Source of the DNA: Clostridium sp. CAG:354_28_25
GTDB taxonomy: Bacteria; Bacillota; Clostridia; TANB77; CAG-508
Direction: 5' to 3'
Length of the DNA stretch: 64,000 bases
NCBI GenBank assembly: GCA_001915925.1
Contig: MNRL01000017.1
Span: 2,780 to 66,779 of the forward strand
Under the pieces are notes generated by a model. The model was given only the letters and a program-made list of their open reading frames with translations, was not told where the DNA came from and searched no databases. Shown in pieces: positions 30,338 through 46,971 of the stretch (its first letter is position 1; each line of letters begins with the position of its first letter). The position numbers and the translations under genes were made by a program.

Positions 30338-31594
30338 TTATTTTATTTCTGGATTTGCTATTGTTTGTATTTCATCATACATATTTATTTTTGTACTAAC
30401 ATTTAATTCTGATGAATTATATCCCATTTCCTTTAGTTCATCAGAACTATAGTTATCTATTATTGAATAGCTATCATTTTCTTTTTCTACTTTTACAAGA
30501 ACTCTTGTTAAATATCCTGCTCTATTTCTAACTACATATGCTAAATCATTTTCCTTTATAATAGCTGTGTTAGGTACTTTATATCCTGAATATTGCCAGA
30601 ATATAATATCAAACGAAATCTTTCTATTACTTATTAATTTTTCTACATCTTTGCTTATTTTAAAAACAACTAAAACATCATCATCTGTTTGTTCCATAGC
30701 ATATTCAACACTGCTAGATATTTCATCTCCATTTGATAGACGTAAATTTAATTTATCTCCTTGTTCTATGTCATGTAATTGCTCTTTTTTTATAATCGTC
30801 GCAATGTAACATTCATAATTATTTACAACTTTTCCACATTCAGTATTTGTAGCAACTGTTTGACCTGTTTTTAAATTTAAACCTTCGAAGAAAGATCTGT
30901 TATAACTACTAAAATCATCTGGTGTTAAAACATCTTCTAATCCATCTACTTTATATGATACTACTCCACTCATTGGAGCTTTTATATATTCACTACCAGA
31001 GTTTAATTGATTCTCATAATTCTTTCTTTCCTGTATCAAATTATTTAAATAAGAACCTGCCTTACTATTTTCTCCAACAATATTTGTTTTTTTAAGTATA
31101 TAGTTTTCTATCTCTTTTTTATATTCAGCAATTTTTTGAATATTATTATTTTTAGAAATTTCTTTCAATCTTAATTCTATTTCTTCATCCAATAATTTTA
31201 TATCACCAGGAAGTATTGATGTAGTATCACTTTTTTGTGCTTCATCTATCTTTTCATCTAGTTCTTGGATTTTTTGTATAAGTTCATCTTCTCCTGTTGA
31301 ATAATATCTAAAAATATTTTCGTCTTTTGCACACTTTTCTCCTTCTGCTTTTATCTGAACTATACCATTTTTATAGTTGTTACCTTGCACTTTGGTTTCA
31401 TCTCTTATTATATACCCTTCTGCTTTTATTTCTTCTGAAATAGAACCCTGTTCTACCAAAAATACATCTGTTGGATGTGCAAATAATTGCCAAGCTGTAT
31501 ACCCAGCATATATTAGCACTGCTACAACTAATATAACTATAAAAACAATTTTTATTTTATTTGTTTTTCTTTTGCCTTCTATTTTTTCTTTCAA
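30338..31594 (-). CDS. HlyD-like membrane fusion/secretion-adaptor family protein (N-terminal TM, coiled coil, beta domain)
   Basis: The TTG start at 31594 overlaps the miaA TGA (TTGA) and is preceded by RBS GGAGGAG. Topology is TM, then a long coiled coil, then a beta-barrel-like C-terminus. Confidence 0.5.
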   Translation of the reverse strand: MKEKIEGKRKTNKIKIVFIVILVVAVLIYAGYTAWQLFAHPTDVFLVEQGSISEEIKAEGYIIRDETKVQGNNYKNGIVQIKAEGEKCAKDENIFRYYSTGEDELIQKIQELDEKIDEAQKSDTTSILPGDIKLLDEEIELRLKEISKNNNIQKIAEYKKEIENYILKKTNIVGENSKAGSYLNNLIQERKNYENQLNSGSEYIKAPMSGVVSYKVDGLEDVLTPDDFSSYNRSFFEGLNLKTGQTVATNTECGKVVNNYECYIATIIKKEQLHDIEQGDKLNLRLSNGDEISSSVEYAMEQTDDDVLVVFKISKDVEKLISNRKISFDIIFWQYSGYKVPNTAIIKENDLAYVVRNRAGYLTRVLVKVEKENDSYSIIDNYSSDELKEMGYNSSELNVSTKINMYDEIQTIANPEIK

Positions 31595-32550
31595 TTTATC
31601 TCCTCCAAGATAATTTCTATGTTCTTTTCGATTCCATCTTCTGCATCTAACCAAATCAGTTCTTTTATTGCTTTAAACCATGTAATTTGCCTTTTAGCAT
31701 ATCTTCTACTTTCTTGTTTTATTTTTTCCACCATTTCTTCATATGTACATTTATTTTCTAAGTATTGGACAACTTCTTTATATCCTAGTCCCTGCATAGC
31801 TGTAGGGAATTCGTTATACTTTTCTTTTATATTTTTAACTTCTTGAATAAGTCCCTGTTCTATCATTTTATCTACTCTAAGGTTTATTCTATCATACAAT
31901 TTACTTCTATCATAATTTATTGCAAATACTTTATAATTATATTTTGGTGGTTCTGCTCTTGAAATTTTTTCAAGTTCTGTTTTAGTTTTTCCTGTTTGAT
32001 TATATATTTCTAATATCCTTAATATTCTCTTTCTATCATTTGGGCTAATTTTAGAAGTAGCTTCTTTGTCTATTTTTTCTGCTTGTTCATATAATTTTTC
32101 TAAACCTTCTGTTCTAGCTTTTTCTTCTAAAAATTCTCTGTATTCTTTATCGAATTCTAATTCTGGGTAATTAATATTATATATTAGACTATTTATATAT
32201 AATCCTGTTCCTCCTACTACTATAGGTGTATATCCATTTTTTATTATCTCTTCAATTGCATTTTCTGCATCTGCTTTGAAATCTGCAACCGAATATCTCT
32301 CATCTGGAGAAACAATATCAATCATATAATGTTTTACACCCTGCATTTCTTCTTTTGTAACTTTAGCTGTTCCAATATCCATATCTTTATATATTTGCAT
32401 AGAATCTGCAGATACAATTTGTCCATTTATTCTTTTTGCAAGTTCTATAGATAATCCAGTTTTTCCTGAAGCAGTTGGTCCTCCTATTACTATAACATCT
32501 TTTTTTGATATTGCCTCTTCCACGTTTTCCTCCATCTTATTTTCTTTCAA
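31591..32550 (-). CDS. miaA: tRNA dimethylallyltransferase MiaA
   Basis: P-loop GGPTASGKT and the characteristic SADSMQIYKDMDIGTAK motif. The start may be TTG 32550 or ATG 32535. Confidence 0.9.
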   Translation of the reverse strand: MKENKMEENVEEAISKKDVIVIGGPTASGKTGLSIELAKRINGQIVSADSMQIYKDMDIGTAKVTKEEMQGVKHYMIDIVSPDERYSVADFKADAENAIEEIIKNGYTPIVVGGTGLYINSLIYNINYPELEFDKEYREFLEEKARTEGLEKLYEQAEKIDKEATSKISPNDRKRILRILEIYNQTGKTKTELEKISRAEPPKYNYKVFAINYDRSKLYDRINLRVDKMIEQGLIQEVKNIKEKYNEFPTAMQGLGYKEVVQYLENKCTYEEMVEKIKQESRRYAKRQITWFKAIKELIWLDAEDGIEKNIEIILEEIN

Positions 32551-34699
32551 ATTTTCTTTCTATTTCATATTTAGACATCTTTATAACAGTTGGTCTACCA
32601 TGTGGACAAGTAAATGGATTTGTTAATTTTAATAATTCATCCATTAAACTTTCTACCTCTTCTTTTGTTAAAACCATATGCGCTTTTACAGCTGCTTTAC
32701 ATGCAATTGTTGCTAAAAATTTATTTTCAATTTCTTGTTTTGCAGTTCTAGAAACAGAATTTATTTCATCTAAAGTTTCTAAGAATAAATCTCTTGTATT
32801 AAGATCTAAACATATACTTGGTGTTCCAGAAATTTTTATAGTATTGTCTCCGAATTCTTCTATTATAAATCCTGCTTTTCTAAATAGTTCCATATTTTCT
32901 TTAGCAATGTCCATTTCTTTATGTGTTAAAGTTATTATGTCTGGCAAAATCATTAATTGTGAATCTTTTTCTTCTTCTGCATAGAAATTCTTTTTTACCT
33001 TTTCAAACATAATTCTTTCATGTGCAGCATGTTGATCCATTATATACATTTCATCATCCATCTCAAAGATAATGTATGTATTAAATACTATTCCTATAAA
33101 TTTATATTGTTGTTTATATTTATAGTCATCTTCTATATTATCAAATAAAGTTGTATTGTCTTCTTTGGTAATTGCTTGTGGTTCTTGTTTTTGATTATCA
33201 TCTTCTATTTTTGGTGGTTTTGTACCAAAAATTTTAAAATACATTTCGTCAAAACTTTCTTTTTTCTCTTCTTCTTTTATATTATTATTTGTTAAATTTT
33301 CAATTTGTTTGTCTATCTCTTTACTAGCTTCTTCTAATTCTTTTATGTCTAATTTTTTATCTTCTTTAGGCTCAGTTACCACTTCTTCTGTTTTAACACT
33401 ATTATTAGTATTTTCTACTTTTGGTTCTGTTTCTACATGTGTAGTTTCTTCTACTGGATTAGTTGTAACTATTGTTTTTGTTTCTTCTGTCTTATTAATT
33501 TCTTCTTTTTCCTCTTCTTCCATTTTAAATGGATTATAATTTATATCTTTCTTACTCTTTTCTAAATCTTCTTTTATTTTTCTTTGTAATTCTAATAAAC
33601 TATTAAACCTATTATTATTAATTTCTGCTCCTATTGTACTTCTGTTTCCAAATAATGAAGTAGTTCCTAAATTATTTTTTTCTTCTCCTCTATCTGAATT
33701 TTTTATTAAATCATTTTTTAATAGTGTATCATTTACTGCATGATATACAGACTTAAATATTTTTGACTCGTCAGAAAATCTAACTTCCAATTTTGCAGGA
33801 TGCACATTTACATCTACTTTTGAAGGATCCATTTCTATATTTAAAATCGAAAATGCATATTTTCCTATTGTAAGTAGTCCTTTAAATCCTTTTTCTATTG
33901 CTCCTGATAAAGTTTTGTCTTTTACATATCTATTGTTTACAAAGAATAATTGGTTTGACCTATTTGATCTTGCTATTTCTGGTTTTCCTATAACACCTGA
34001 AATATATATATCTTCGTATGTATAATCTACTTTTAACACATTTTCCGCAATATTTTTACCGTATATACCATATATAACTGCTTGGATATCTCCATTTCCA
34101 GCTGTTTGTATAATAGTTTTTCCTGTATTAATTAGTTTGAATGCAATGTTTGGATTTACTAATGCAAGTCTTGTAATAGCATCTTCTATATAACCTGATT
34201 CTGTAAAATCTTTCTTTAAAAATTTATATCTAACTGGTGTATTAAAGAATAAATTTCTTACTGTTATTGATGTTCCTGTTTTACATCCAATTTCTTCGTG
34301 TTCTAATACTTTTCCTGCTTCTACTACTAGTCTTGTTCCTATTTCATCATTTGCTGTCTTTGTTATTAGTTCTACATTTGCAACAGCTGCAATACTTGCT
34401 AAAGCCTCGCCTCTAAAACCCATAGAGTGGATTGTCTCTATATCGCTTGCTTGTCTTATTTTACTTGTTGCATGTCTTTCGAACGCAATTTCTGTATCAT
34501 CTTTTGCAATTCCTTTACCATTATCAGTTATTCGTATAAAAGATATTCCTCCATTTTTTATTTCTACAGTTATAGCTGTTGCACCTGCATCTATTGAGTT
34601 TTCCACCATTTCTTTTACTACAGATGCTGGTCTTTCTATAACTTCACCTGCTGCTATTTTATTTATTGTTAATTCATCTAATAAAACAATATTACCCAT
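32537..34699 (-). CDS. mutL: DNA mismatch repair protein MutL
   Basis: 720 aa with an N-terminal GHKL ATPase (AAGEVIERPASVVKEMVENSIDAGAT), a variable linker and a C-terminal dimerisation/endonuclease domain (DQHAAHERI). Confidence 0.92.
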   Translation of the reverse strand: MGNIVLLDELTINKIAAGEVIERPASVVKEMVENSIDAGATAITVEIKNGGISFIRITDNGKGIAKDDTEIAFERHATSKIRQASDIETIHSMGFRGEALASIAAVANVELITKTANDEIGTRLVVEAGKVLEHEEIGCKTGTSITVRNLFFNTPVRYKFLKKDFTESGYIEDAITRLALVNPNIAFKLINTGKTIIQTAGNGDIQAVIYGIYGKNIAENVLKVDYTYEDIYISGVIGKPEIARSNRSNQLFFVNNRYVKDKTLSGAIEKGFKGLLTIGKYAFSILNIEMDPSKVDVNVHPAKLEVRFSDESKIFKSVYHAVNDTLLKNDLIKNSDRGEEKNNLGTTSLFGNRSTIGAEINNNRFNSLLELQRKIKEDLEKSKKDINYNPFKMEEEEKEEINKTEETKTIVTTNPVEETTHVETEPKVENTNNSVKTEEVVTEPKEDKKLDIKELEEASKEIDKQIENLTNNNIKEEEKKESFDEMYFKIFGTKPPKIEDDNQKQEPQAITKEDNTTLFDNIEDDYKYKQQYKFIGIVFNTYIIFEMDDEMYIMDQHAAHERIMFEKVKKNFYAEEEKDSQLMILPDIITLTHKEMDIAKENMELFRKAGFIIEEFGDNTIKISGTPSICLDLNTRDLFLETLDEINSVSRTAKQEIENKFLATIACKAAVKAHMVLTKEEVESLMDELLKLTNPFTCPHGRPTVIKMSKYEIERKFERK

Positions 34700-34844
34700 A
34701 TATTTTTTCTCCTTTTCCTATATACACTACCATTCTGCCAGAAATTATATCATTATTTTTTTAGTAACACAATAGATATATTCCGAATAAGATATATCAT
34801 ACTAAGGAAAAACTTAAGGTTAAAAGAAAAGGGAGGTAATATTT

Positions 34845-34967
34845 ATGTGTTGTAATAATGATTTATTATGGTTCATCATTCTTTTCTTAATACTTTTCTG
34901 CGGTTGTGGAAATAGTAGAAATTCTGGATGTGGATGTGACACACCATGTGACCCATGCGGTTGCTAA
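34845..34967 (+). CDS. YjcZ-like small Cys/Gly-rich sporulation peptide (40 aa: MCCNNDLLWFIILFLILFCGCGNSRNSGCGCDTPCDPCGC)
   Basis: Not in the track. A strong RBS GGGAGG sits 8 nt upstream. Central hydrophobic stretch flanked by Cys/Gly-rich ends. It is a paralogue of the adjacent ORF. Confidence 0.5.
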   Translation: MCCNNDLLWFIILFLILFCGCGNSRNSGCGCDTPCDPCGC

Positions 34968-35030
34968 CAAGCTTGCTGTTTTAATATTTTTTAACAGTTA
35001 TACTTATGCAATTTGAAAGGAGGGATTGAT

Positions 35031-35153
35031 ATGCCAGAAAATAGAGGCTGTGGATGTGGTTTCGGTTTTGGAGATGATTGCTGCACATGGATAATACTAT
35101 TAATTATAATATTCTGCTTATGTGGTGGAAATAGAAGAAACGGATGTTGCTAG
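35031..35153 (+). CDS. YjcZ-like small Cys/Gly-rich sporulation peptide (40 aa: MPENRGCGCGFGFGDDCCTWIILLIIIFCLCGGNRRNGCC)
   Basis: RBS AAAGGAGGG sits 7 nt upstream. Same length and architecture as the upstream paralogue. Confidence 0.5.
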   Translation: MPENRGCGCGFGFGDDCCTWIILLIIIFCLCGGNRRNGCC

Positions 35154-35162
35154 TTTAAATAC

Positions 35163-35206
35163 GAAACAAAACAGGCTGAGAAATTATCCTCAGCCTGTTT
35201 TGTTTT
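35163..35206. terminator. strong bidirectional intrinsic terminator
   Basis: GAAACAAAACAGGCTGAG-AAATTATC-CTCAGCCTGTTTTGTTTT: an 18-bp perfect stem with flanking A and T runs. Confidence 0.8.
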
Positions 35207-35342
35207 GTGCGACCTCTCCTTTATGCCAATAACTGGTTCGAGCAGACTAGAAGTTCCTAGCCTACTCGAACACATGTTATTTAGAAATAATCCAACCTAA
35301 TGTAACTTTTTTCAATTATTTGGCTATTTTTAGCCTAAAAAA

Positions 35343-35370
35343 GGGATTTAAGGAACGTCCCCAAAATCCC
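35343..35370. repeat. GGGATTT-palindromic repeat, copy 6 (gggatttaaggaacgtccccaaaatccc) immediately downstream of groEL
   Basis: Flanked by A(6) and a T-rich tract. Acts as the groEL terminator hairpin. Confidence 0.7.
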
Positions 35371-35385
35371 TTTTCACTTTTTTTA

Positions 35386-37331
<1,946 letters not shown>

Positions 37332-37357
37332 TACACATTACCTCCTATATATGATTA

Positions 37358-37414
37358 TTAGCACTCTTTCTTTGTGACTGCTAATAATTTATACCTTTTT
37401 TTAGCACTTGTCAA
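37358..37414 (-). promoter_or_regulatory. groESL promoter region with CIRCE (HrcA operator) inverted repeat and -35 TTGACA
   Basis: TTAGCACTC-N9-GACTGCTAA at 37358-37384, with one mismatch to the consensus TTAGCACTC-N9-GAGTGCTAA. The minus strand carries TTGACA (37414-37409) upstream. Confidence 0.8.
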
Positions 37415-37596
37415 GTATGTTTGCTAATTTTCACATAAAATTCACATTTCTGTTTTTAAGCAAGTTTTCATTATTAATTTTATTAATAAGCTCACTTTTT
37501 TATAACCAATTTTTATATTTAATAAAGACTAGAATTTGCTCTAGCCTTTATCTTATTTTCTTTTACTTTACCTCATTTTCCAAACAGGAACGTCTT

Positions 37597-44755: not shown

Positions 44756-44961
44756 ACTTTTTCCTCCCATTCAGGATTGAATAACCTAAAACTATTTGTT
44801 ACACTTGTTTATTTTATACTCTTTTCTTAAATTTAGCAATACCTATAATTTTATTAAGGACTTGATACTTTTTCGATTTTATTATAATATAATACCGTAA
44901 GCCAAAAAGTTTACAAGATAAAAATATTTGAAAGGAGGAAATTTTATATTATATAAATGAC

Positions 44962-45125
44962 ATAAAAAAGCGCCAGGACACATTTTGTGTTGACGAGGTC
45001 AGAGCTAATCGAAATTTTCGGCGGGTACTCTGTGGTATGCTACTACCATAAATATTAGCAAAACCTACTAGTGATAGTAGAACAAATCTAATTGTGTAGC
45101 TATATTGTTACTTTTTGGCTATTTT
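44962..45125 (+). ncRNA. glmS ribozyme: glmS ribozyme (GlcN6P-responsive self-cleaving riboswitch) in the glmS 5' UTR
   Basis: Conserved core elements AGCGCCAGGAC and GUUGACGAGG, plus AUCGAAAUUUUCGGCGG, sit directly upstream of glmS (ATG 45148). Confidence 0.8.
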
Positions 45126-45147: not shown

Positions 45148-46971
45148 ATGTGTGGAATTATTGGTTATATAGGAACCAAAAAAGCCAAACCAATTTTAAT
45201 TAATGGTTTACTTAGATTAGAATACAGAGGTTATGACTCTGCAGGAATTGCCACAGTAGAAAAAGATGGCATAAAAGTTATAAAAGAAAAAGGAAGAATT
45301 GCAAATTTAGATGCAATGGATGGAATAAATGATTTAGAAGGTACTATTGGTATTGGTCATACTAGATGGGCAACACATGGAAAACCTTCTGCTATTAATT
45401 CTCATCCACATTATGATAATGAGAAATTATTTGCGGTTGTGCATAATGGAATAATAGAAAATTATCATGACTTAAGAAAATTTTTGGAAGACAATGGATA
45501 CACATTCCTTTCTGATACTGATACAGAGGTTATTCCAAATTTAATTAATTTTTATTACAAAAAAGAAAATGATTTCTTAAAAGCTGTTAAACTAGCTTGT
45601 GATGAGTTAAAAGGTAGTTTTGCTTTAGAAATCTTATGCAAATATTATCCAGACAATATGATTGTCGTAAGACAAGATAGCCCTTTAGTTATTGGTAGAG
45701 GTTTAGATGAAAATTATATTTCTTCTGATATTCCTGCTATTTTATCATTTACTAAAGACTTCTATTTCCTAAATGATAGAGAATTTGCAGTACTATCAAG
45801 AGATAATATAGATTTTTATGATAATGAACTAAACAAAATTGATAAAGTTGTTAAGAGTATTGAATGGAATACTGCATCAGCAGAAAAAGACGGTTATGAT
45901 GACTTCATGTTGAAAGAAATCTATGAACAACCAAATGCGATAAGAGAAACAATTGGTTCAAAATTATCTGAAAGTAAAATCTCTTTTAATGATTTCGAAA
46001 TTAAAAAAGAATTTTTAGAAACTATTAATAGAATATATATTGTTGCATGTGGTACAGCAATGAATGCTGGGCTGGCTACAAAGGCTACTTTTGAAAATTT
46101 CTGTAAAATCCCAACTGAAGTTGATATAGCTTCAGAGTTTAGATACAGAAATCCATTAATAGATGAACATACATTATGTATTTATATTAGCCAATCTGGT
46201 GAGACTGCAGATACAATTGCAGCTTTAAAACTAGCCAAAAGCAAAGGTGCAAAAACTATAGCAGTAGCAAATGTTATTGGTAGCTCTATAACTCGTGAAG
46301 CAGATTACTGCATTTATACACATGCAGGTCCAGAAATTGCTGTTGCTTCTACCAAAGCATATACTTCACAAGTTGTTTTATTAAATATTTTAGCATTATA
46401 TTTTGCAGAAGTTTTAGATAGAATTCCTAGCTCAACAATTGATTCAATGAAAAAAGAGCTTTTGGAATTACCTAAAAAAGCAGAAATAACATTAGGAAAT
46501 GTTGCAGAAGTTAAAAACTTCGCTAATATTGTATATAAAGAAACAGATATGTTCTTTTTAGGTAGAGGTGTAGACTACTATGTAGCATCTGAAGGATCTT
46601 TAAAATTAAAAGAAATTTCATATATTCATTCTGAGAGCTATGCAGCAGGTGAATTAAAACATGGACCTATAGCTTTAATAGAAAATGATGTTACAGTAAT
46701 AGGAATTATTACAAATCCTAATTTGGTTGAAAAAACAATAAGTAATATACAAGAAGTTATTACAAGAGGAGCTAAAACTTTAGTAATTACAAATCAAAAG
46801 ATAAACGAATCACAGTTCTTTAAGGTAATAAACATTCCTGATACAGAACCTTGTTTATCACCAGTTTTATCTATAATACCTTTACAATTACTTGCATATT
46901 ATATTTCAAAAGAAAAAGGATTAGATGTTGATAAACCTAGAAATTTAGCAAAATCTGTAACAGTTGAATAG
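45148..46971 (+). CDS. glmS: glutamine--fructose-6-phosphate aminotransferase GlmS
   Basis: Starts MCGIIGY (Ntn Cys2) and has two SIS domains. 607 aa. Confidence 0.95.
   Translation: MCGIIGYIGTKKAKPILINGLLRLEYRGYDSAGIATVEKDGIKVIKEKGRIANLDAMDGINDLEGTIGIGHTRWATHGKPSAINSHPHYDNEKLFAVVHNGIIENYHDLRKFLEDNGYTFLSDTDTEVIPNLINFYYKKENDFLKAVKLACDELKGSFALEILCKYYPDNMIVVRQDSPLVIGRGLDENYISSDIPAILSFTKDFYFLNDREFAVLSRDNIDFYDNELNKIDKVVKSIEWNTASAEKDGYDDFMLKEIYEQPNAIRETIGSKLSESKISFNDFEIKKEFLETINRIYIVACGTAMNAGLATKATFENFCKIPTEVDIASEFRYRNPLIDEHTLCIYISQSGETADTIAALKLAKSKGAKTIAVANVIGSSITREADYCIYTHAGPEIAVASTKAYTSQVVLLNILALYFAEVLDRIPSSTIDSMKKELLELPKKAEITLGNVAEVKNFANIVYKETDMFFLGRGVDYYVASEGSLKLKEISYIHSESYAAGELKHGPIALIENDVTVIGIITNPNLVEKTISNIQEVITRGAKTLVITNQKINESQFFKVINIPDTEPCLSPVLSIIPLQLLAYYISKEKGLDVDKPRNLAKSVTVE

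Follow-up and report, generated by a model that had tools for sequence, protein, structure and literature searches.

The interval between mutL and groEL in a 64,000 nt stretch of Clostridium sp. CAG:354_28_25 (contig MNRL01000017.1, positions 2,780 to 66,779 of the forward strand, from here on the window) contains two tandem open reading frames (ORFs), ORF1 and ORF2, and we consider it somewhat probable that these form a two-gene σK operon encoding spore-envelope peptides of a distinct family of approximately 40 residues, with Cys/Gly-rich ends flanking one short hydrophobic helix. ORF1 and ORF2 are real genes under strong purifying selection, and the family that they belong to has no existing Pfam or NCBIfam model or annotation, nor did our literature searches find a paper describing it. 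The operon is preceded by a family-conserved promoter which fits the late mother-cell σK type, and this supports the idea, put forward in the initial annotation of this DNA, that a sporulation sigma factor drives the two ORFs. That annotation also suggested that they could be forespore peptides, which is disfavoured because the promoter type is that of the mother-cell factor σK.

The initial annotation had described two ORFs of exactly 40 codons, each with a near-consensus ribosome binding site (RBS), and the positions and length were borne out; both ORFs are on the + strand and have a strong RBS (Table 1). In a scan of the 64 kb, ORF1 and ORF2 were the only two of the most Cys-rich small ORFs to lie between genes, with the others overlapping long ORFs, and the two peptides contain 8–9 Cys per 40 residues. 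Comparison of orthologous DNA from related loci, comprising 10 distinct ORF1 and 14 distinct ORF2 sequences, gave a ratio of nonsynonymous to synonymous polymorphism (pN/pS) of 0.08 for ORF1 and 0.05 for ORF2, and the third codon position accounted for 16/21 variable sites in ORF1 and 17/23 in ORF2. These low ratios and the predominance of third-position variation show that both are genuine genes, and rule out chance ORFs. The possibility raised initially, that the ORFs might lack homologues or conservation in relatives, is not borne out, as homologues are present in many metagenome-assembled genomes (MAGs) and the pN/pS values are 0.05–0.08. A Cys-sensing leader peptide or attenuator was likewise ruled out, since there is no gene on the same strand before the terminator.

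Both ORFs share the core D-x-x-x-W-[IF]-I-I-L-x-[IL]-I-[LF]-F-C-x-C-G-x-x-R-N-x-G-C, in agreement with the common architecture noted at first, although the Cys/Gly-rich N-terminus ascribed to both peptides does not hold for ORF1, where the long N-terminus seen in ORF2 is missing and the Cys-rich C-terminal tail is longer instead. AlphaFold, run with the family alignment, predicted one helix at residues 16–34 of ORF2 with disordered ends, at a mean predicted local distance difference test score (pLDDT) of 63, representing moderate confidence. At codon 30 of ORF2 (35118–35120) the window encodes F-C-L-C-G-G, where nearly all other ORF2-type members have F-C-C-C-G-G, and this change (TTA versus TGT) requires two base changes and leaves the conserved CCC cluster one Cys short. 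The same Leu is found in two near-identical metagenome proteins (P0001 and P0002), and therefore represents a real population variant.

Among 1.84 billion representative proteins, a profile search identified 74 members of the family at E≤1e-3, with the consensus MPENRGCGCG-x-FG-x-D-C-x-W-IIILLII-x-F-CCC-G-NN-x-x-GCC. Homologues of ORF2 reach down to ~63% identity, while the set of ORF1 homologues is smaller, and the homologues are named 'hypothetical protein' in the databases and nothing else. Scanning ORF1, ORF2 and 46 members against Pfam and NCBIfam returned only noise (for example LptM, WBP-1 and signal peptidase, E>0.002). The 23 loci from species-representative genomes all come from uncultured MAGs labelled Clostridia, Clostridium sp. 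or Lachnospiraceae, with a GC content of 25–39% and with animal guts (sheep rectum, rabbit) as recorded sources. In most loci the peptide gene and mutL-miaA are divergently oriented, with the peptide gene upstream of groEL, and this order persists down to 65% identity of the MutL N-terminus and 75% identity of GroEL. The tandem pair is found in the close relatives of the window and in the more distant locus L021, with only the ORF2 type present elsewhere. A few members lie in unrelated contexts, adjoining TerC, rubrerythrin/SpoIID or a transposase, and in five proteins of 63–106 aa two repeats are fused (P0072, P0097, P0104, P0105 and P0109; loci L036 and L037). As these fused forms parallel the tandem gene pair, they suggest that the two repeats work together. 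The L036 locus is located near genes for rubrerythrin, Cu/Zn-superoxide dismutase and SpoIID.

Alignment of the upstream regions of 22 non-redundant loci, which are unalignable elsewhere, revealed a bipartite element, (G)T[A/C]AC[A/C]-N16/17-[C/A]ATAnnATA, followed by a block TATA[A/T]CATAC. The -35 part, (G)T[A/C]AC[A/C], was present at constant spacing in 23/23 non-redundant loci, and never has a G where the σA sequence TTGACA has one. The strict pattern TAAC-N16/17-MATANNATA was found at the promoter in 30/32 loci, 74–99 nt upstream of the first peptide gene, with a second match in only one locus, and the whole window contains 3 such matches versus 1.14 expected by chance. The motif also precedes 4/5 members located in unrelated contexts (L033, L034, L037 and L038), with the background of the loose motif being ~0.15 per 170 nt. 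There is no separate promoter motif between ORF1 and ORF2, hence the two genes are probably co-transcribed as one RNA ending at the terminator hairpin.

The block TATA[A/T]CATAC shows almost the same degree of conservation as the promoter boxes and probably spans the +1 position. It may also resemble a SpoIIID-type site (WWRRACAR-Y). The predicted start at ~34799 was placed using the C. difficile σK transcription start sites (TSS) of PMC7438776, which lie downstream of the first base of xATA at a median distance of 13 nt. The sequence CATACTA (34798–34804), initially proposed as the -10 box, coincides with the predicted +1, and locus comparison places the -10 element 12 nt upstream of it, at AATAAGATA. 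The predicted 5′ untranslated regions (5′ UTRs) contain a small hairpin near the start, at 34800–34825 in the window (CTAAG...CTTAG in the clade of the window) and at 5958–5985 in L001, where it has another sequence (GCGATT...AATCGC) at the same position; such a hairpin may act as a 5′ mRNA stabiliser.

For assignment of the sigma factor, we used the experimentally assigned C. difficile promoter sets of PMC7438776 (Tables S5 and S6) as reference. The pattern AC-N16/17-[AC]ATAnnnT, which is satisfied by 23/23 family promoters, matched 22/27 σK promoters of C. difficile, 0/54 σE promoters and 0/50 σF/σG promoters. The features of the σK promoter class (AC, CATA---TA, 16–17 nt spacing and conservation in orthologues) were present in 23/23 family promoters. 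In C. difficile, GTAACA is the -35 sequence of many mapped σK promoters, including those of cotA, cotE and CD1067, and the σK -10 sequence starts with A in cotA, cotE and CD1891 (PMC7438776), while the AC of the -35 element separates σK from σE, which has ATA at this position (PMC3789822), with a matching statement for B. subtilis in PMC517825. The sequence thus fits a late mother-cell promoter of the σK type. Two other sporulation sigma factors were considered and rejected: σE since there is no ATA at -35 and the pattern is absent from the σE set, and σF/σG since their set lacks the pattern as well and the spacing from GAATA to CATACTA is only 8 nt.

Table 1. Features of the peptide operon and its flanking genes in the window
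Feature	Position	Strand	Remarks
-35 element GTAACA	34764-34769	+	'AC' for σK specificity at 34767-34768
-10 element AATAAGATA	34786-34794	+	family consensus [C/A]ATAnnATA, 17 nt after AC
Conserved block TATCATACTA	34795-34804	+	family consensus TATA[A/T]CATAC; predicted start ~34799
ORF1 RBS GGGAGG	34831-34836	+	8 nt before ATG, read from sequence
ORF1	34845-34967	+	40 codons, peptide MCCNNDLLWFIILFLILFCGCGNSRNSGCGCDTPCDPCGC; paralogue with short N-terminus and long Cys-rich C-tail
ORF2 RBS AGGAGG	35018-35023	+	7 nt before ATG, read from sequence
ORF2	35031-35153	+	40 codons, peptide MPENRGCGCGFGFGDDCCTWIILLIIIFCLCGGNRRNGCC; widespread 'MPENRGCGCG' type
Terminator hairpin	35160-35209	+	perfect 21-bp stem (35160-35180 / 35189-35209), 8-nt loop
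mutL	32537-34699	-	left flank of the peptide-gene interval
groEL	35386-37023	-	right flank of the peptide-gene interval

Two other promoters within the window were inspected. The groES promoter (37355–37420, - strand) is of the canonical TTGACA / TATAAA type, contrasting with the peptide promoter, and is followed by a controlling inverted repeat of chaperone expression (CIRCE) operator, TTAGCAGTC-N9-GAGTGCTAA. The glmS gene of C. difficile is controlled by σK, and the sequence upstream of glmS in the window (45148–46971) was used as an in-genome σK control; this contained a σA-like TTGATA-N17-TATAAT sequence, with no AC/CATA motif. A glmS ribozyme (Rfam RF00234, 85.8 bits) is located upstream of this gene at 44958–45103, and was the only match in an Rfam scan of the whole window.

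A putative capacity of the source organism to sporulate is supported by the presence of yqfD and pdaA in the window. YqfD (3152–4339) matched TIGR02876 with 314.5 bits (cutoff 256.7), and the delta-lactam de-N-acetylase PdaA (4636–5445) matched TIGR02884 with 310 bits (cutoff 298), with both hidden Markov models (HMMs) being sporulation-specific equivalogs. An ORF of the size of yqfC is located between the two genes, and a spoIID gene adjoins a distant member of the peptide family. A second exact match to the promoter pattern, TAAC-N16-AATAATATA, is found at 5592–5620 on the - strand, 147 nt upstream of pdaA-yqfC-yqfD (5445 to 3152, - strand), where it overlaps the start codon of a divergent LytTR regulator gene. 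This match is ambiguous, and may represent either a mother-cell promoter or a chance occurrence.

Taken together, we propose that the operon would be read from the promoter listed in Table 1 up to the terminator hairpin, and the σK-type promoter would place synthesis of both peptides at a late stage of sporulation, in the mother cell. The helix of ~15–19 residues (C-x-W-IIILLIIIF-CCC) would then insert into the outer forespore/mother-cell membrane or into a hydrophobic coat matrix, and the thiol clusters (CGCG, CCC and GCC) may join the peptides to one another or attach them to coat proteins, via disulfides or metal-thiolate bonds. The two paralogues would probably act as a hetero-oligomer, and could thus be the clostridial functional counterpart of the tiny sporulation peptides typified by YjcZ of Bacillus. 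This location and chemistry are inferred from the composition of the peptides and the behaviour of Cys-rich coat proteins.

Several observations weigh against this proposal. In about half of the loci, including the window, the -10 sequence begins with A and not with the canonical C, the L036 locus encoding a fused-repeat member has no clear promoter motif, and a σA promoter with a 17 nt spacer ending in [AC]A would also match the loose pattern; dependence on σK is deduced from the motif itself. At the protein level, the hydrophobic core is short for a segment that spans a membrane, the confidence of the AlphaFold model is moderate, and the cross-linking or metal-binding chemistry is conjectured purely from composition.

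The initial annotation described the peptides as YjcZ-like, and recommended a search with a TIGR01732-type model. Part of this description stands: like the YjcZ family (PF09680 Tiny_TM_bacill; TIGR01732) of the Bacillaceae, the peptides are within a range of 28–60 aa, have an N-terminus rich in Gly (and Cys or Tyr) and one core rich in Ile, Leu, Val and Phe, and fit the YjcZ layout of ~30–50 aa with a Gly-rich N-terminus and a single hydrophobic segment. Both families occur in endospore-formers, putative ones in the case of the peptides, with yjcZ of B. subtilis assigned to the σK regulon (PMC517825) and the peptides described here having a σK-type promoter. Membership of the YjcZ family did not survive any of the tests made. 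With PF09680 and TIGR01732 there was no match at E≤10 for ORF1, ORF2 or any of the 46 members, and as HMMER filters can hide matches, we also used an unfiltered HMM built from 45 aligned sequences of true YjcZ proteins, each with PF09680 and the database name 'YjcZ family sporulation protein'. With this HMM the median score of the peptide family was -1.1 bits and its highest score 7.5 bits. Block-shuffled controls, made by separate shuffling of the N-terminus, core and C-terminus, scored at least as well (95th percentile 4.6, maximum 13.6 bits), and YjcZ proteins scored ~62 bits on their own HMM. The link to YjcZ is one of architecture and composition, and membership is not demonstrated.

True homology with YjcZ, highly diverged, we consider quite unlikely. 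In its favour, the shared size and layout and the place of yjcZ in the σK regulon are accompanied by two sequence signals. The family HMM gave a median of 11.1 bits on real YjcZ proteins, versus 4.9 bits on block-shuffled ones, and hhalign aligned the two families with 75% probability, although over only 13 Gly-rich columns and with the hydrophobic core outside the match. The cores differ: the YjcZ invariant core F-A-L-x-V-V-L-F-I-L-L-I-I-(V)-G, with F, V, L, F, I, L, L, I and I invariant in the alignment of 45 sequences, is not present in the peptide family, and the hallmark W-IIILLI-F-CCC-GG of the latter, with nearly invariant W, I, C, C and G within W-I-I-I-L-L-I-I-x-F-C-C-C-G, is not found in YjcZ. 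Besides the core, W-IIILLIILF-CCC-GGN versus F-A-L-I-V-V-L-F-I-L-L-I-I-V-G in YjcZ, the peptides described here have a far higher Cys content (8–9/40), and CGCG and CC(C) clusters flank their helix at either end; they also differ from YjcZ in keeping a position adjacent to mutL and in having fused two-repeat forms.

A fairly unlikely explanation is that ORF1 and ORF2 encode small vegetative membrane proteins with a σA-like promoter and no link to sporulation, such as a type I toxin or a micro-protein with a role in membrane stress or regulation. The -10 region does contain TAnnAT, GTAACA equals TTGACA at 4/6 positions with a spacing of 17–18 nt, and a σ70-like hexamer pair is present antisense within ORF2; furthermore, small hydrophobic peptides of 30–50 aa are typical of type I toxins (PMC6563280). 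However, σA is disfavoured by the absence of its TTG from all 23 promoters, where AC and the [C/A]A preceding TA do not vary, and the pattern is specific for σK among the mapped sporulation promoters of C. difficile. The antisense hexamers stem from AT-rich Ile and Phe codons, and promoter-like sites are not enriched in this region (6 versus 4.1 expected). The peptides share with the clostridial type I toxins (PMC6563280) a length of 30–50 aa, a hydrophobic helix, an intergenic location and the tendency to be missed by annotation, but have no evident antisense RNA and do have a sporulation-type promoter. Their stable chromosomal synteny across genera and purifying selection differ from the patchy, mobile distribution of toxin-antitoxin loci, and 8–9 Cys per 40 residues is not a trait of type I toxins. 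Even less support was obtained for precursors of ribosomally synthesised and post-translationally modified peptides (RiPPs) or bacteriocins, with Cys residues modified by a distant maturase such as a radical S-adenosylmethionine (SAM) enzyme, lanthipeptide synthetase or thiazole-forming enzyme, an idea that was touched upon in the initial annotation and that we consider very improbable. It draws on the Cys-richness, the length of ~40 aa and the tandem arrangement, together with an HlyD-family gene 3 kb away (30338–31654), but this gene belongs to the mutL-miaA-sepF string on the opposite strand, and no adjoining maturase, protease or ATP-binding cassette (ABC) exporter was found in the window or in any of the 38 loci, where the neighbours are mutL, miaA, groEL, an extracytoplasmic function (ECF) sigma factor, TerC and rubrerythrin. 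The peptides also match no NCBIfam or Pfam family of RiPP precursors (for example of the SCIFF/ranthipeptide or lanthipeptide type), and show no recognisable leader/core division or cleavage motif, with the hydrophobic helix being their most conserved part.

Comparison with known small or Cys-rich sporulation proteins places the proposed σK-dependent spore-envelope peptides in context. SpoVM and CmpA of B. subtilis are also very small, and act from the mother cell at the forespore surface during envelope assembly (PMC10730256), but SpoVM is a 26-aa amphipathic helix which is dependent on σE, is not Cys-rich and has no sequence similarity to the peptides, whose promoter is of the σK type. The Cys-rich CotY and CotZ of B. 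subtilis and CdeC and CdeM of C. difficile are late mother-cell products which cross-link in the outer spore layers, and the same chemistry is proposed for the peptides described here; these proteins differ in being ~160–400 aa in length, soluble and without a hydrophobic helix, and homology was not detected in the searches run. A more speculative extension, which we regard as distinctly improbable, is that the peptides represent an undescribed class of membrane-embedded Cys-cluster micro-proteins of strictly anaerobic spore-formers, in which paired helices, from a gene pair or a fused protein, would sit in the outer forespore membrane with thiols that stay reduced in the gut and, once the spore is exposed to oxygen, become cross-linked as disulfides or metal-thiolates. 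If true, this would constitute a self-hardening or redox-sensing element of the spore envelope with no equivalent in Bacillus.

Tiny proteins routinely escape annotation, and this peptide family is an example. It provides a compact and easily recognised marker for a probable late mother-cell (σK) gene in uncultured gut Clostridia of low GC content, in which the ability to form spores matters for spread from one host to another, and the family-wide promoter could serve for prediction of the σK regulon in the MAGs that carry it. If confirmed as parts of the spore envelope, the peptides would add a membrane-type building block with Cys clusters to the poorly known clostridial coat. The advance is incremental, as tiny hydrophobic σK peptides, typified by YjcZ, are already known from Bacillus.

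The terminator hairpin following ORF2 has a ΔG of -32.6 kcal/mol (z = -10 versus shuffles), and is of the bidirectional type, with a GC-rich core and with arms rich in A (5′) and U (3′). The perfect stem reported initially is present, with a length of 21 bp instead of 18 bp. A simple consensus terminator scan gave no match at the ORF pair, since the hairpin has its U-run within the 3′ arm, and an Rfam scan of 34000–36000 found no family at the gathering threshold, with sub-threshold noise of microRNA-type hairpins on the terminator. Downstream of the terminator, close relatives have a gene of 238–268 aa on the - strand, without a Pfam match, between the peptide operon and groEL (6460–7266 in L005). 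The window lacks this gene and has hairpins in its place at 35210–35385, including a strong unique hairpin at ~35228–35278, which is part of a fold with z = -6.7, and the groEL terminator hairpin at ~35340–35377. P0008, an ORF2 variant with a deletion or fusion, extends into the same region, and this interval looks like an indel hot spot.

It was initially suggested that the peptide genes occupy the slot where mutS would be expected. The accompanying statement that mutS is not present in the 64 kb window is correct, as the sole ORF of at least 800 aa encodes FtsK. The mutL/peptide/groEL order is ancestral in this lineage, given its persistence down to the MutL identity mentioned above, and the mutS 'slot' is therefore incidental; the absence of mutS here reflects the ancestral gene order and not a position taken over by the peptides. 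On the other side of mutL, the HlyD_2 or resistance-nodulation-division (RND)-related periplasmic-adaptor-like gene (30338–31654) is located between miaA and sepF in every syntenic relative. In Firmicutes hfq is commonly found behind miaA, and it was not seen between miaA and sepF in the window or its syntenic relatives.

Finally, visual inspection of 5501–8530, next to the pdaA-yqfC-yqfD genes, identified a candidate agr-like quorum-sensing locus. This comprises a LytTR-type response regulator gene (~5612–6370), a membrane histidine kinase gene which is apparently split into two overlapping ORFs (6312–7136 and 7108–7683), possibly by a frameshift, and a gene for an AgrB-like membrane protein on the - strand (7925–8530).

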